Below, one piece after another: positions 3,747 to 55,053 of a DNA stretch of 64,000 nt (its first letter is position 1; the number at the start of each line of letters is the position of its first letter). Source of the stretch: Alphaproteobacteria bacterium (GTDB taxonomy: Bacteria; Pseudomonadota; Alphaproteobacteria; UBA828); contig CBDEUT010000004.1 in the NCBI GenBank assembly GCA_965243375.1, positions 234,276 through 298,275 on the forward strand, read 5' to 3'. The notes under the pieces were generated by a model that saw nothing but the letters and a program-made list of their open reading frames with translations, was not told the DNA's origin and did no database searches. A program made the translations under genes and the position numbers.

Positions 3747-4015
3747 TAGCCCGCCCTTCTCACCAGGGTCACGGCCTGCGTCGCGCTCAGGCGTTCGATC
3801 CGCCAGGAGCGGGCCGAAAAGCGTATCAGGGAATACGGTTGAGGCCCGCGACGCCGCGGGCGGGCGCCTGGGCGCGACCCGAAGGGCGGCGCTCTCCGGC
3901 CGACAGCGTGCGTCACGGCGCTTCCCCGATGCACCACATCGCGGTGCGCGCCGTTCCTGCTCTGCCGGCCGGACAGCGCCGCGCAGACCATGACCCTGGT
4001 GAGAAGGGCGGGCTA
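3747..4015. mobile_element. MITE-like element or long palindrome with perfect 25-bp terminal inverted repeats
   Basis: TAGCCCGCCCTTCTCACCAGGGTCA at 3747-3771 and its exact reverse complement at 3991-4015. Imperfect complementarity continues about 15 bp inward. The interior has no convincing coding frame. The ychF TAG stop (4013-4015) lies inside the right repeat. Confidence 0.6.
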
Positions 4016-5116
4016 AACATTGAAGCGGAAGTGCATGACATCGCCGTCCCGCACCACGTAGGCGCGGCCCTCCTGGCGCATGCGTCCGGCGCTGCGGGCG
4101 GCCTGCTCGCCGCCGAGCGCGATCAGCTCGTCGGCCGCGATGGTCTCGGCGCAGATGAAGCCGCGCGCGAAATCGGTGTGGATGCGGCCGGCCGCCTCGA
4201 CCGCCGTGCTGCCCGCCGGAACAGGCCAGGCGCGCGCCTCGGTCTCGGTGGCGGTGAGGAAGCGGATCAGGCCGAGCAGGCTGTGCCCGGCGTGGATCAC
4301 GCGGTCGAGGCCGGGCGCCCCGAGCCCCAGGGCTTCAACAAAGTCACTCTTCTCCGCCGGGTCTTCGAGCAGGGCGATCTCGGCTTCGAGCGCGGCCGAG
4401 ACCACGACCTGCTCCGCGCTGGCGGCGTTGGCATGGGCGGCGACGGCCTGGCTCATCCCGTTGCCGGTCGCAGCGCACGCCTCGTCGACGTTGCTGACGT
4501 AGAGCACCGGCTTGGCGCTGAGCAGGTTGAGGGCCGAGAATTCGCGCTTGGCCGTCTCATCGGGCAGGTCCGGGGCGCGCGCCGGGCGTCCGCTCTCGAG
4601 CAGGGCGAGCGCCGGCTCGATCGCCGCGAGCCGATCCTTCGCCTCCTTGTCGCCGCCGCGCGCGCGCTTGATCGCACCTTCGCGCTGCCGCTCCAGACTC
4701 TCCAGGTCGGCCAGCATGAGCTCGGTCTCGATCAGCTCGATGTCGTGCAGTGGATCGACCGCGCCGGGGCTGTGCGTCACCCGATCGTCCTCGAAGCAGC
4801 GAACCAGGTGGAGCAAGGCATCGACCTCGCGCACGTGACCCAGGAAGCGATTGCCGAGTCCCTCGCCTTTGCTGGCGCCTTCGACGAGGCCGGCGATATC
4901 CACCACCTCCAGCACGCTCGCCACGACCTTGCGCGAGCCGGCGAGGCGCGCGACCTCGTGGAGCGCAGGGTCCGGCACCGGCGCGCGCCCCACGTTGGGC
5001 TCGACGGTGCAGAAGGGGTAGTTGCCGACCTCGGCCGCGCCGCTTGCGACCAGCGCGTTGAAGAGCGTGGACTTGCCCACATTGGGCAGGCCCACAATGC
5101 CGCACCTAAACCCCAC
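4013..5116 (-). CDS. ychF: redox-regulated ribosome-binding ATPase YchF
   Basis: 367 aa, GTG start, P-loop GIVGLPNVGKSTLFNAL, conserved C-terminal TGS-like end DGDVMHFRFNV. Conserved position downstream of pth. Confidence 0.9.
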   Translation of the reverse strand: MGFRCGIVGLPNVGKSTLFNALVASGAAEVGNYPFCTVEPNVGRAPVPDPALHEVARLAGSRKVVASVLEVVDIAGLVEGASKGEGLGNRFLGHVREVDALLHLVRCFEDDRVTHSPGAVDPLHDIELIETELMLADLESLERQREGAIKRARGGDKEAKDRLAAIEPALALLESGRPARAPDLPDETAKREFSALNLLSAKPVLYVSNVDEACAATGNGMSQAVAAHANAASAEQVVVSAALEAEIALLEDPAEKSDFVEALGLGAPGLDRVIHAGHSLLGLIRFLTATETEARAWPVPAGSTAVEAAGRIHTDFARGFICAETIAADELIALGGEQAARSAGRMRQEGRAYVVRDGDVMHFRFNV

Positions 5117-30319: not shown

Positions 30320-30410
30320 CCCTCAGGCGCCGGGCGCTCGCTCCGTTCGCTTGGCTACGCGCCTTCGGCGCGGCGCGCGGTCGCGCGCTCCGGCCCGCTG
30401 CGCGGCCCGG
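30320..30410. repeat. REP-like GC-rich intergenic repeat, copy 1 (second copy at 48407-48493)
   Basis: CCCTCAGGCGCCGGGCGCTCGCTCCGTTCGCTTGGCTACGCGCCTTCGGCGCGG...GCGGCCCGG recurs with about 90 percent identity by eye at 48407-48493. Contains the hairpin GCGCC-TTC-GGCGC. Sits between convergent genes. Confidence 0.7.
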
Positions 30411-30421
30411 TGCACTGCTCG

Positions 30422-34374: not shown

Positions 34375-34417
34375 CCCGCCAGCGGCGCGCCGCTCGGAGG
34401 GAGCCCGATGGCCTGAC

Positions 34418-34456
34418 GAATCCCGCTTCATCCCGCGTTGTTCCGCTTCATCCCGG
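34418..34456 (+). repeat. short degenerate copy of the phased ATCCC array (3-4 cores)
   Basis: GAATCCCGCTTCATCCCGCGTTGTTCCGCTTCATCCCGG, with cores about 10 bp apart, in the same orientation as the 39.6-kb array. Confidence 0.5.
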
Positions 34457-35361: not shown

Positions 35362-39006
<3,645 letters not shown>

Positions 39007-39437: not shown

Positions 39438-39619
39438 CCGTGGACTTCCGCGCGGAGTCTTGAGGCGCAGGCGCGCGGTCGGGCCTGACGATCCGGCCGG
39501 CTCGACGCCCCGGACCATGGTGCGGTTCACGGCACGGGGCACCTGTGCCAGGATCGCGCCATGCTGCCTACGAGCGAACCGCCCGCGCCCTACGCCATTG
39601 CCACCGCTTGTCTCGGTGA

Positions 39620-39862
39620 ATCCCACTCATCCCACTTAATCCCGCTTATCCCAGGGAATCCCACTTATCCCAGGGAATCCCACTTATCCCAGGGAATCCC
39701 ACTTATCCCGGCGAATCCCGCTTGTCCCGGCGAATCCCGCTTATCCCAGGGAATGCCGCTTATCCCAGGGAATCCCGCTTATCCCAGGGAATCCCGCTTA
39801 TCCCAGGGAATCCCGCTTATCCCAGGGAATCCCACTTATCCCACTCAATCCCGGCTAATCCC
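39620..39862 (+). repeat. tandem array of 26 phased ATCCC cores (19-bp unit, alternating 9/10-bp spacing)
   Basis: Counted directly: cores start at 39620, 39629, 39639, 39648, 39658 and so on up to 39858. 24 are perfect ATCCC, with one GTCCC and one ATGCC variant. The main unit is GGGAATCCC(A/G)CTTATCCCA. No unique spacers. Confidence 0.95.
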
Positions 39863-39936
39863 GCATGAAGTACAGGCATGCCGAGGTGGGACGCGGAACG
39901 GGACCGGGGGTGCGGTGAGATACTCGGGTTAGCCGG

Positions 39937-41625
39937 TCAGCCGTAGCGGTAGTCGCGGCGCGCGCCTTCCGGCGTGATCCAGCCCTCGCTCAGGTCTTCG
40001 GCGATCATGGCGGGGTCGCGCTCTGCGACATCGCCGTAGCCGCCTGCGCCCGGCGCGATCAGGCGCACGCGGTCGCCGGGGCCGATGGTCGCGTTGGCGA
40101 ACTTGCTGGGCGAGGTCTTGCCGAAGGCCTCGGTGAAGGGGCGCCAGCCGTTGCCGCCGGCTTCCTGATAGAAGAGCCCGCCCGTCGCGCCCGGCCCGCC
40201 GCCGAGCAGGCCCCAGGGCTGCATCTTGTGACGGTCTGAGACCGAGCTCACCGTGATCTCGGTGTCCATGCAGCGGAGGATCTTGGCGAGCGCATGGGCG
40301 CCCCGGTATTGGCCGGGCCCGCCGGTGTCCGGCTGCAGCGCGTACTCCTCGATCATCCACGGATAGCGCACCTCGAACACCTCGATCGGCACCATGCGCG
40401 AGTTGCCGTTGATGCAGTTGATGACCTCGTTGCCGTCGGCGAAGGAGCGCCCGCCCCAGGCGGCGCAGGTGAAGTCGTAGCAGACCACGTAGTCGCCGGA
40501 GCGCGGGTCGGTGGCGCCGAACAGGAAGTTGCTGTGGGTGCCCGCGTCGGTGGCGAAGGCGCGGTCCGGCACGCACTGCGCGAGCGCCGCGATGATCGTG
40601 TAGGCGATGCGGATGTGGGTCTCGGTGTTGCCGCCGACGCAGGTGGCCGGATAGTCCGCGTTCACCAGGGAGCCGCCGGGCGCCACGATCTTGATCGGGC
40701 GGAAGCAGCCCGAGTTCTTGGGGATCGACGGGTCGGTGAGGTGCAGGATCGCGTTGTAGGCCGAGGACCACGCGACCGAGAGGACGGCGTTGATCGGCCC
40801 CTGCGCCTGGGCGTCCGTGCGGCCGTAGTCGACCACCACCTCGTCGCCCTGGACGTGGACATCGACGTGGATCTTGTAGGGCCGGTCCTCGATGCCGTCG
40901 TCCTCCATGTAGTCGGCGAAGCTGTAGACCCCGTCGCGGAAGGCGGAGAGCTCGGCCCGCATGCGCGACTCCGCGTAGTCCATCAGGTCGTCGGCGGTCT
41001 TGCGGAATGTGTCCGGCCCGTACTTCTCGATCAGCGCGGTGAGCCTGGCGGCGCCCACGTCGACGGCGCTGATGAGGGCGCGGAAGTCGCCGTAGTTGGC
41101 GCGGGGCGTGCGGTAGTTCGCGAGCAGCAGCTTCCACACCTCGACCACGTCCTTTCCGCCCTCCTTGATCTTGACCGGGGGGACGCGCATGCCCTCGTGG
41201 AAGATCTCGGTGGCCTCGCCGGCGAAGCCGCCGGGGACCATGCCGCCGACCTCCGCCACATGACCGATGGCGACGGCGTAGCCCATCAGCTCGCCCCGGT
41301 AGAACACGGGCTTGATGAAGGTGTGCTCGGGCGTGTGCATGCCGCCCCGGTAGGGGTCGTTGTGGACGATGACGTCGCCTTCCTCGACCTCGTCGTGCGG
41401 GATTTCCTGGGCCGAGGTCTGCAGCACGAGCGGCAATCCGCCGATCTGCGAGGGGTTGAACTCGGCAACCCCGATCAGCTCGCCCCGCGTGTTGCCGAGG
41501 CCGCAGGTGAAGTCCAGGCCCTCGTTGAAAATGGTCGAGTAGGAGGTCTTCATCATCGTGATGCCCATCTCGCGGCAGATGGACACCATCGTCGAATCGA
41601 TGATGTTCATGGTGACCATGTCCAT
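39937..41625 (-). CDS. hydantoinase B/oxoprolinase family protein (HyuB-type, no adjacent HyuA)
   Basis: 562 aa, AGGAGG upstream. NIIDSTMVSICREMG...SYSTIFNEGLDFTCG is the HyuB N-terminal pattern. Confidence 0.85.
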   Translation of the reverse strand: MDMVTMNIIDSTMVSICREMGITMMKTSYSTIFNEGLDFTCGLGNTRGELIGVAEFNPSQIGGLPLVLQTSAQEIPHDEVEEGDVIVHNDPYRGGMHTPEHTFIKPVFYRGELMGYAVAIGHVAEVGGMVPGGFAGEATEIFHEGMRVPPVKIKEGGKDVVEVWKLLLANYRTPRANYGDFRALISAVDVGAARLTALIEKYGPDTFRKTADDLMDYAESRMRAELSAFRDGVYSFADYMEDDGIEDRPYKIHVDVHVQGDEVVVDYGRTDAQAQGPINAVLSVAWSSAYNAILHLTDPSIPKNSGCFRPIKIVAPGGSLVNADYPATCVGGNTETHIRIAYTIIAALAQCVPDRAFATDAGTHSNFLFGATDPRSGDYVVCYDFTCAAWGGRSFADGNEVINCINGNSRMVPIEVFEVRYPWMIEEYALQPDTGGPGQYRGAHALAKILRCMDTEITVSSVSDRHKMQPWGLLGGGPGATGGLFYQEAGGNGWRPFTEAFGKTSPSKFANATIGPGDRVRLIAPGAGGYGDVAERDPAMIAEDLSEGWITPEGARRDYRYG

Positions 41626-48406: not shown

Positions 48407-48493
48407 CCCTCAGTCGCCGGGCGCTCGCTCCGCTCGCTTGGCTACGCGCCTTCGGCGCGCGGCGCGGTCGCGCCGTCCGGGCCTGCGGCCCGG
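48407..48493. repeat. REP-like GC-rich intergenic repeat, copy 2
   Basis: CCCTCAGTCGCCGGGCGCTCGCTCCGCTCGCTTGGCTACGCGCCTTCGGCGCGCGG...GCGGCCCGG matches 30320-30410. It starts at the IS target duplication. Confidence 0.7.
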
Positions 48494-48529
48494 CCCCCAA
48501 TACTACCCGCCCTGCGAGTGGCCCCGCAC

Positions 48530-54747: not shown

Positions 54748-54819
54748 ACCGCTCGCCCGCATCGCCCGCCACGTTCGCGGCCCGGTCCGCGCCCCACCGC
54801 GGCACACCGGCTTCCATGC

Positions 54820-54941
54820 GGGATACGCCGGGATTAACCGGGATAAGTGGGATTCGCCGGGATAAGTGGGATTCGCCGGGATATGCGGGATTGAGTGGGA
54901 TGAACCGGGATAGAGCGGGATGAAGCAGGACCAATCGGGAT
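54820..54941 (-). repeat. phased GGGAT (=ATCCC) core array, 12 perfect cores plus 1 degenerate, inverted relative to the 39.6-kb array
   Basis: GGGAT starts at 54820, 54830, 54840, 54849, 54859, 54868, 54878, 54887, 54897, 54907, 54917 and 54937, with a degenerate core at 54927. Includes GGGATAAGTGGGATTCGCC twice, the reverse complement of a unit variant of the other array. Confidence 0.9.
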
Positions 54942-55053
54942 TCCTCCGGGACGAGCGGTGGCGATGACTTCGGGCGTGGGCGCTTCGCTCCTGCACTGCA
55001 TGACGCGATACTGACGCTTGCGCCGCGCCCCCTCCACCGCACCATGGTGCGGG

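Follow-up and report, generated by a model that had tools for sequence, protein, structure and literature searches.

A Dispersed Mosaic Repeat with a Mu-Type Late-Promoter Architecture in Sponge- and Marine-Associated Alphaproteobacteria, Very Probably Derived from a Small-Terminase Module

The DNA analysed here, called the window, is a stretch of 64,000 nucleotides from an alphaproteobacterial genome (GTDB lineage UBA828; assembly GCA_965243375.1, contig CBDEUT010000004.1, positions 234,276 to 298,275 of the forward strand). It carries two copies and a remnant of an intergenic element, organized as a conserved head, an array of short tandem repeats with ATCCC-type cores and a tail. As to identity and origin, this element of about 430 bp is very probably a dispersed, gene-less derivative of a phage module that consists of a late promoter, a small-terminase gene, a repeat array and a tail. 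The family to which it belongs is real and multi-copy in sponge- and marine-associated Alphaproteobacteria, and it has apparently not been described before. Each of its parts is of a known kind, be it the promoter type, the terminase family or the mosaic repeat. The phage late promoter and the link with the small terminase are visible only through related loci of other genomes, which are designated below by L numbers.

Organization of the Copies in the Window

Copy 1 has an HbpS-like gene on one side and a convergent hydantoinase B gene on the other, and copy 2 is located between recG and a convergent DUF1491 gene. Both are ordinary chromosomal settings, and the two elements lie in opposite orientations within 15 kb. 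Tandem Repeats Finder delimits the array of copy 1 at 39618-39862, with 12.8 copies of a 19-bp unit (GAATCCCGCTTATCCCAGG), 89% matches and a score of 348. A script listing recovered the 26 phased ATCCC-type cores of the original prediction, the first at 39620 and the last at 39858. Twenty-four of them are spelled ATCCC; the two others are GTCCC (39724) and ATGCC (39753). The alternation of 9- and 10-bp steps, originally described as strict, holds throughout copy 1 up to the final step, which is also 10 bp. The reverse-complemented copy announced at 54.8 kb is present as well, with 13 cores on the minus strand (Table 1). The window contains 27 occurrences of the three-core pattern ATCCC-N4-5-ATCCC-N4-5-ATCCC, always within the two arrays, and 0.01 are expected from shuffled sequence. 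In both arrays, the units are contiguous and separated by linkers of 4-5 nt of a few recurring types; the unique spacers of an array of clustered regularly interspaced short palindromic repeats (CRISPR) are absent, as had been stated.

The heads of the two copies align without gaps over 88 columns. Head and spacer together are 73% identical between them, and the tails 63%. The conserved head seen in the original prediction is real, yet longer than was thought: in copy 1, it begins ~110 bp 5' of the array, at CCGGACCATGGTGCGG. The tail of copy 1 aligns with those of copy 2 and of five loci from other genomes (L046, L039, L003, L011 and L047). The view of a discrete mosaic element with polarity, in which a head and a tail enclose an array of varying copy number and which is present in several copies, has thus been borne out.

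An open reading frame (ORF) of 123 amino acids (39561-39932, plus strand) runs from the invariant ATG of the head through the array and the tail of copy 1. It can pass the array because the unit has no stop codon in any of the plus-strand frames. The array had been said to hold no credible coding frame; this ORF does span it, but it is without a Pfam match, and other family members do not conserve it. A coding function of the array was considered and rejected, as the ATG-initiated ORFs of other gene-less members stop at arbitrary places. If the transcript of copy 1 is leaderless, the ORF could yield a proline-rich repeat peptide.

The Head as a Phage-Type Late Promoter

The members of the family were chosen by their arrays, not by their heads. 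Nevertheless, ACCATGGTGCGGTGCACGG is found with few mismatches 79-383 nt 5' of the array in all 18 members with upstream DNA (16 loci and the two window copies). Their heads form a gap-free alignment of 88 columns, with CCCCGGACCATGGTGCGGTGCACGG, 16 nt of free sequence and fixed length, a CAnnAT hexamer, six bases and an invariant ATG. Within the hexamer, the A at position 2 and the T at position 6 are invariant. Such a layout, in which a constant-length spacer separates a conserved block from a hexamer with its A2 and T6, makes the head read as a promoter. In a set of 49 distinct heads, the -10 box is CAnnnT and the ATG stands at +1 in 44. A scan with the sigma-70 consensus revealed no promoter with both hexamers, and no intrinsic terminator was detected. 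By inspection, TGCACG, which stands where a -35 box would be, agrees with the consensus in three of six bases.

In the late promoters of phage Mu, a -10 hexamer can be recognised and a typical -35 is missing, and the element bound by the C protein is a 16-bp imperfect dyad with its centre at -43.5 (PMC2582627). In our alignment, a dyad occupies columns 9-24 and the -10 box columns 48-53. When +1 is placed at column 60, which is the presumed start, the centre of the dyad also falls at -43.5. Conditional on this start point, the head has the structure that defines a late promoter of the Mor/C-dependent type of phage Mu. Transcription probably begins with the A of this ATG, seven bases beyond the -10 box, and gives a leaderless message, because the ATG is a real start codon in several members. 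Among the proteins that start there are a DUF5675 protein (Pfam 2.8e-24, from profile position 2) and small-terminase proteins of the Phage_Mu_Gp27/phrog_426 family, hereafter Gp27.

The genes behind the head agree in kind. In related genomes, the same head stands before lysis genes, a portal gene, a head-tail cluster and stand-alone genes of the Mu-Gp27 family (small terminase, TerS); in the window copies, it drives no gene. One example is the phage-like element of L180-182, in which an S24-family repressor, GemA and Mor are followed by a head, DUF5675, a holin-like gene, DUF2730, Gp27 and the large terminase (TerL). A second head precedes Portal_Mu, and a third one, on the other strand, precedes the head-tail cluster. 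In L174-176, heads likewise precede DUF5675, the portal gene and the head-tail cluster. Such phage-like clusters are partly fragmented in some genomes. The first gene of the L107-type head-tail cluster was considered as a Mu gene I protease/scaffold, which received no support from Pfam.

A candidate activator is encoded in the same systems. A Mor-family protein (PF08765, above the gathering score) is encoded near the heads in L127, and in L180-182 the Mor-family gene lies inside the phage-like element itself. Mor homologs fall into 63 clusters of ~115 amino acids, most of them 75-96% identical, and some are located on contigs of several Mb.

A hairpin repeat (GTCATGCCCGGAC...GTCCGGGCATGAC), often followed by a G run, recurs just upstream of heads in several genomes (L168/L170 at ~3880-3990, L171 at ~3830-3880, L179 at ~4840-4960, and L110 after the gene called X below).

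Origin from a Small-Terminase Module

In several related loci, the array starts at the stop codon of the Gp27 gene (L103, L156, L168-170, L172-173 and L135). In the stand-alone Gp27 modules among them (L103, L156, L168-170 and L172-173), the head lies ~110 nt upstream and no terL gene is adjacent. Shorter Gp27 paralogs, without profile positions 1-40 (the helix-turn-helix part), start at the ATG of the head and are followed by the array (L025, L123 and L110). The transition to a gene-less element can be followed between two orthologous loci. L135 is ordered as head, Gp27, mini-array, tail, second head and DUF5675; L127 has the same order minus the Gp27 gene, and its gene-less head and array have the form of the window copies. 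Gene-carrying and gene-less members also have in common an AGCGA motif in frame at +6 or +12 after the ATG. The spacer between ATG and array in copy 1 is probably the leftover 5' end of a Gp27-like gene, to judge from this motif. At the other end, the tail of copy 1 contains, after an inverted core (GGTGGGAC), the 13-mer GAACGGGACCGGG; the same 13-mer occurs in L181 just after the Gp27 stop codon, behind GGTGTGGGAT. In sequence terms, this similarity is short but specific.

No array follows the lysis operon that this head also drives, which makes arrays specific to the gp27 flank. The Gp27-TerL junctions examined have no array either, and this marks the array as a property of stand-alone modules rather than of the intact operon.

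A structural model of a Gp27-like protein has a confident N-terminal helical domain, followed by long helices. TerS proteins have a modular layout and are thought to wrap ~100 bp of DNA (PMC6854486). The modelled protein has the general layout expected of a TerS. A sequence search against the PDB returned nothing significant, and the Gp27 clade was found neither in IMG/VR nor, by tblastn, in cultured phages.

Two further observations concern these modules. Gene X of L110 and L153 encodes a 293-amino-acid Gp27-like protein without the helix-turn-helix, whose C-terminal half includes a coding tandem repeat (HARGAHDDV, four to five copies); the copy number differs between L110 and L138. L172/L173 (GCA_028874855.1) is a stand-alone Gp27 module with head and array in a genome labelled Gemmatimonadota, and all other members are alphaproteobacterial. 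This is either a cross-phylum transfer among sponge symbionts or a binning error.

Distribution, Dispersal and Turnover

One genome per species was scanned with a four-core pattern, which yielded at least 98 loci. At least 17 of them belong to the family and come from Alphaproteobacteria, Rhodospirillales and Defluviicoccus metagenome-assembled genomes (MAGs). Among the matches listed, most are unrelated low-complexity tandem repeats (Streptomyces, Bacteroidales, Stellaceae and others). The family loci share a common syntax, AATCCCACTTATCCC... at the start and ...ATCCCGGCGAATCCCG at the end. There are at least five of them in the CBDEUP MAG, three in RHO3_bin_80 and two to three copies in the window. 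Core numbers range from 4 to 26 across the family; copy 1 has the longest array among the members found, the others having 4-14 exact cores. The gene upstream of the element is co-directional for 15 of the 18 elements, most downstream genes are convergent, and the elements occupy whole gaps between convergent genes. Scanning of metagenomes with the 19-mer of the head gave ~30 true heads, and about half of the matches belong to two unrelated repeat families or to coding sequence. Further copies with conserved heads and tails, which the original prediction had called for, do therefore exist.

The family seems to be new, as had been supposed. Topic and sequence-string searches returned no published description of the element or its sequences, and none of orphan Mor/C-type promoters coupled to repeat arrays. 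Rfam gave only noise (H19_3, CcsR1 and ALIL), both for the whole window at gathering thresholds and for the element at permissive E-values. The 16-mer of the head found no true heads among the viral contigs of IMG/VR, and the head has no match in a plasmid collection.

Two other repeats were met in these scans. In marine metagenomes, a different repeat family has the same 19-mer inside GTGCAGGAACCATGGTGCGGTGCACGGGTTAAGGGTGC..., sometimes with long tandem GGTGCAGG-like units (L137, L149 and ~20 others, among them L106, L111, L116-L118, L120 and L122). A dispersed element of the Stellaceae MAG SMAG_U3529, ATCCCCCCGATCCCCAA(C/T)CATCCCCCCGATCCCC with T-rich flanks, is found on at least eight contigs (L001, L028, L034, L037, L045, L049, L075 and L076); it fits the four-core pattern only and is unrelated.

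The closest relative of the window genome is the Rhodospirillales MAG RHO3_bin_80, which has one gene-carrying locus (L025) and two gene-less ones (L039 and L046) with one common core. L046 is the ortholog of the recG locus of copy 2: its flanks are ~92% identical and the element is at the same place. The window thus comes from a close relative of the RHO3_bin_80 organism. At this orthologous locus, the element itself is only 53-78% identical. Over head and spacer, L046 is closer to copy 1 (88%) than to its positional ortholog, copy 2 (77%). This fast divergence, together with the closeness of copy 1, indicates that the elements turn over, convert one another or re-insert. Core numbers likewise differ between orthologous loci of related genomes (7 vs 12, 11 vs 5, and 2 vs 3 terminal units), a variation that had been anticipated. 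Mobility is also suggested by one variant, ~90% identical, that sits between unrelated flanks in L027 and L062/L136. Its ends are sharp, the identity spanning from ~6 nt before ACCATGG to ~100 nt past the array. Neither terminal inverted repeats nor target-site duplications were found at the single boundary pair examined.

These data raise the question of whether the element has any function in the cell. It could be a mobile or decaying mosaic repeat, the fossil of a promoter-terS junction that spread through the gaps between convergent genes. Its array length would then be set by replication slippage, and its head would be conserved because the copies are young or because spreading needs the head. 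The sharp-ended variant, the multiple loci in single MAGs (at least five in one, three in another), the turnover at orthologous loci and the variable copy number are all in line with such a relic. The same is true of the deletion derivatives (a head-less remnant at 34.4 kb in the window, and L127 compared to L135), of the partly fragmented phage-like clusters and of the array-less intact terS-terL junction. Nevertheless, we consider a functionless relic rather unlikely. The absence of terminal repeats and target duplications at the boundary pair does not favour it, the head is far better conserved than the spacer and tail of the same copies, also across genomes, and the arrays are constrained in a way that is described next.

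Constraint on the Array

In the 18 arrays of the ATCCC lineage, 172 of 202 interior cores are exact, a count in which cores have a mild advantage, as the segmentation takes the best core within 8-11 bp. Each core position has an entropy of 0.05-0.43 bits, compared with 1.0-1.6 bits for a linker position, and core position 2 is T in 201 of the 202. Linker variants include AGGG, GGCG, ACTT and GCTT. The original statement that the linkers vary while the pentamer and a spacing of ~10 bp are constrained agrees with these numbers. A strict phasing at one helical turn did not survive the comparison, since steps of 9 bp (89) and 10 bp (130) are mixed in the family. Across lineages, the unit follows a common grammar, NNNYC-R-C-Y-T-T, and the array ends in a core, GGnnA, a core, GC and an A/T-rich stretch. 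The core class changes with the lineage: ATCCC, (G/A)TCTC, G(G/A)GCC or GTGCC.

The exact cores and diverging linkers of the same arrays are difficult to reconcile with a relic. Slippage copies whole units, and alone it does not predict a contrast between core and linker. The persistence of the same grammar in lineages with diverged cores points in the same direction.

The constraint might also act on the RNA. A C-rich, G-poor transcript with one YC-rich motif every ~9.5-10 nt, followed by a U-rich pause, would be a strong loading (rut) site for the termination factor Rho, which would stop transcription from the late promoter and from the upstream gene before it reaches the convergent gene. 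The six primary sites of Rho together take up ~57 nt, which corresponds to three 19-nt units. Several properties of the family fit this explanation: the array is always downstream of the head on the transcribed strand, the array of copy 1 contains 39.5% C and 17% G, the form YC-R-C-Y-T-T is common to all core classes, and most members have an A/T-rich stretch past the last core. The orientation of the neighbouring genes and the lack of an array inside the intact terS-terL operon, where termination would do harm, are expected as well. However, the near-invariance of T2 and the conservation of the whole pentamer are more specific than the YC preference of Rho, and the GGGCC and GAGCC core classes are not G-poor. 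The AGGG linkers can pair with the CCC cores, and the array strand folds no less than shuffled sequence (z = 0.36). The stand-alone lysis operon with the same head ends without an array. Moreover, if orphan promoters were harmful, their loss would be the simpler solution, yet the heads are conserved. A Rho-dependent role at the RNA level is, on balance, quite unlikely. Folding of the minus strand was also no better than that of shuffled sequence (z = -0.21), and the fold of the tail alignment is weak, with an unfavourable covariation term.

Proposed Function of the Array

A protein-binding, iteron-like array, as suggested originally, is still the leading reading. In its present form, to which we give somewhat less than an even chance, the array would be a sequence-specific protein-recognition array that is linked to TerS, pac-like and read by transcription from the late promoter. 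Conservation of the head, constraint on the lineage-specific cores, and the attachment of arrays to genes of the Gp27 family only, at their 3' flank, together point to a sequence-specific factor tied to the small terminase. The array would be a row of recognition sites for this factor. The likeliest candidate is the helix-turn-helix domain of the Gp27-type small terminase; in that case, the array would amount to a pac-like site in multiplied form. Firing of the head by an activator of the Mor/C family would lead to transcription of the array and thereby open it. As the window copies lack a TerS gene, they would be limited to acting in trans, or they may be relics. The array may thus work like a pac site, yet we do not file it as one: it adjoins terS in related loci and is absent from the intact packaging unit.

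A number of observations weigh against a TerS-recognized array. L181, the most complete of the phage-like elements, has no array at its Gp27-TerL junction, only a single core facing an inverted core, and in a bona fide Mu-like prophage of Geobacter, TerL follows Gp27 without an array. The array is thus not needed for the parental packaging unit. Its presence also does not go along with that of the helix-turn-helix domain: two stand-alone Gp27 forms with this domain (L171 and L179) have no array, and the forms without it (L025, L123 and L110) have one. CSRSAVxRY, the putative recognition helix, hardly varies, in contrast to the lineage-dependent cores, and the mixed 9/10-bp periods keep the sites off one common helix face. 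In a Foldseek search with the modelled Gp27-like protein, no terminase matched significantly. Homologs of gp27, mor or gam are missing from the 64-kb window, and the low identity of the element at the recG locus, next to flanks of ~92%, has to be added.

Short direct repeats at about one helical turn look alike in several systems, and the original prediction had placed the array near plasmid iterons, plasmid-type centromeres and DnaA-box clusters, with a GGA-type sponge RNA on the opposite strand as a further option. All of these are extremely unlikely here. The half-unit TTATCCCAG has, by inspection, six of nine positions in common with the DnaA box, and many members have an A/T-rich stretch after the array. 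However, the nine matches to TTATNCACA with at most one mismatch in the window compare with 6.2 expected and none falls in the arrays, so a cluster titrating DnaA is contradicted; moreover, the cores vary by lineage, which also speaks against iterons and centromeres. The immediate neighbours are recG, DUF1491, HbpS-like and hydantoinase genes, with no rep or par gene beside either copy. The locations are chromosomal, the elements occur in both orientations, and the plasmid collection contains no match to the head. The sponge RNA fails on its strand, because the promoter runs along the ATCCC strand and not the GGGAU strand; its fold (z value given above), Rfam and the terminator scan gave no support either.

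A wider proposal can be made for the system as a whole. The arrays could be packaging-initiation sites of a domesticated Mu-like particle system, that is, a gene transfer agent (GTA) with designated pac sites, or they could be a host decoy for a phage terminase. The Mor-like activator, the TerS paralogs, TerL, the portal, the head-tail genes and the lysis genes would be under one promoter type and switched on together with the arrays. The particles would then begin packaging host DNA at defined, polar chromosomal sites that are tunable by their copy number. We regard this as very unlikely.

Several consequences would follow if the proposals are true. The family would join dispersed intergenic mosaic repeats with phage regulatory and packaging signals, which are usually studied apart, and the heads would be a set of orphan activator-dependent late promoters among housekeeping genes. 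Array cores that are constrained and change with the lineage would provide a ready-made pair for finding the cognate binding protein. DNA packaging by GTAs and defective prophages is believed to lack defined start sites (PMC6854486). A system with designated packaging sites, if true, would change this picture of undefined starts. Even in the dullest reading, the element is a phage-operon fragment turned into a mobile element with a variable number of tandem repeats, and it offers a practical strain-typing marker for sponge-associated Alphaproteobacteria.

Other Features of the Window

The features of both copies and of the remnant are listed in Table 1. The remnant is located between an amidohydrolase gene and a MOSC-domain gene, and the head-profile search detected no head at 34411-34455.

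Table 1. Position of the element parts in the 64,000-nucleotide window. Functions given for the head are predictions that depend on the presumed transcription start.
Feature	Position	Strand	Evidence
Copy 1, head (predicted Mor/C-type promoter)	39507-39563	+	Gap-free 18-sequence alignment; head profile E = 4e-14
Copy 1, 16-bp imperfect dyad, CCGGACCA and TGGTGCGG	39510-39525	+	Head alignment
Copy 1, near-invariant 19-mer ACCATGGTGCGGTTCACGG	39514-39532	+	Head alignment
Copy 1, head spacer, 16 nt, fixed length	39533-39548	+	Head alignment
Copy 1, -10 box CAGGAT	39549-39554	+	Head alignment
Copy 1, invariant ATG, presumed transcription start	39561-39563	+	Head alignment
Copy 1, ATG-to-array spacer, motif GAGCGA at +12	39564-39619	+	AGCGA in frame in other members
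Copy 1, array, 26 cores (A/G)T(C/G)CC, 9/10-bp steps, ending ...ATCCCGGCTAATCCCGC typical of the family	39620-39862	+	Repeat finder, core listing
Copy 1, tail: GCATGAAG..., inverted core GGTGGGAC, GCGGAACGGGACCGGG...; reaches hydantoinase B stop codon	39863-39936	+	
Copy 2, head, begins at recG stop codon	54998-55054	-	Head profile E = 2.4e-13
Copy 2, dyad	55037-55052	-	
Copy 2, -10 box CAGTAT	55008-55013	-	
Copy 2, ATG	54999-55001	-	
Copy 2, array, 13 cores (12 ATCCC, 1 GTCCT), linkers very diverse	54820-54941	-	
Copy 2, tail, reaches stop codon of convergent DUF1491 gene	54748-54819	-	
Head-less remnant, four cores (AATCCCGCTTC ATCCCGCGTTG TTCCGCTTC ATCCCGG)	34411-34455	+	

Copy 1 is flanked by hydantoinase/oxoprolinase paralogs. 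The upstream one is a fused A+B protein of 1214 amino acids (35362-39006, plus strand), and the second one, convergent on copy 1, is a separate B subunit (39937-41625, minus strand). The window contains no tRNA or tmRNA genes.

The array of copy 1 includes nine GANTC sites for CcrM methylation (39656-39827) at 19-bp steps, and there are 152 such sites across the window. CcrM sites were considered as the defining feature of the array and rejected, as a site is formed only by a G in front of AATCCC and the remaining core classes have none. They are probably incidental.

A REP-like unit of ~95 nt, CCTCAG(G/T)CGCCGGGCGCTCGCTCCG(C/T)TCGCTTGGCTACGCGCC..., is present in the window at 30321-30411 and 48408-48496. 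These units are ~90% identical to units located just upstream of heads and after Gp27 in L181, and this second repeat family therefore ties the window genome to the L181 element.

Comparison with Known Systems

In its architecture, the head is closest to Plys, PI, PP and Pmom, which are late promoters of Mu, and the middle promoter Pm, with a -10 box, no -35 and a 16-bp dyad at -43.5 (PMC2582627). As in Mu, heads are found before lysis, packaging and head operons, and here a Mor-family gene is part of the same phage-like element. In contrast to Mu, the sequence of the dyad (CCGGACCATGGTGCGG) is unrelated, the start at the ATG would be leaderless, and activation is presumed. Many copies are also orphaned from phage genes and scattered among housekeeping genes.

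Repeated short motifs are also a feature of phage packaging sites. The pac site of P1 contains repeated hexamers, those of SPP1, P22 and Sf6 lie in or near terS, and the satellites of the Staphylococcus aureus pathogenicity island (SaPI) and phage-inducible chromosomal island (PICI) type carry terS together with pac. The arrays described here resemble them by their short motifs at a small-terminase gene and by the stand-alone terS without an adjacent terL. They differ in being far longer (up to 26 units) and variable in copy number, in lying mostly apart from terS, and in their absence from the intact terS-terL junction.

Plasmid iterons and centromeres of the parC/tubC type likewise consist of contiguous short direct repeats, with putative cooperative binding by a small protein. 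Unlike them, the element has no rep or par genes, is chromosomal, occurs in both orientations and mixes 9- and 10-bp periods.

Among intergenic mosaic repeats, the BOX element of Streptococcus pneumoniae is composed of boxA-boxB(n)-boxC, and BIME, RIME and ERIC belong to the same group. The present element is also dispersed, multi-copy and intergenic, has conserved ends around variable tandem units, and occurs in the same form between unrelated flanks. Its unit is 9-10 bp compared to 45 bp in BOX, its head has the features of a phage promoter, it has a traceable origin in a terS module, and no stable RNA fold is predicted.

For the surrounding system, the gene transfer agent of Rhodobacter capsulatus (RcGTA) provides the nearest comparison. 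RcGTA gp1 is a TerS without the N-terminal DNA-binding domain (PMC6854486), as are some of the TerS paralogs found here. The structural genes are unrelated to those of RcGTA, the clusters are partly fragmented, and the system is known here from its genes alone. Discrete packaging sites are not known from GTAs. In common with RcGTA, phage-like head-tail, lysis and terminase genes are located at syntenic chromosomal sites, with one promoter type and a conserved activator. By this analogy, the surrounding system resembles a gene transfer agent or a grounded Mu-like prophage.

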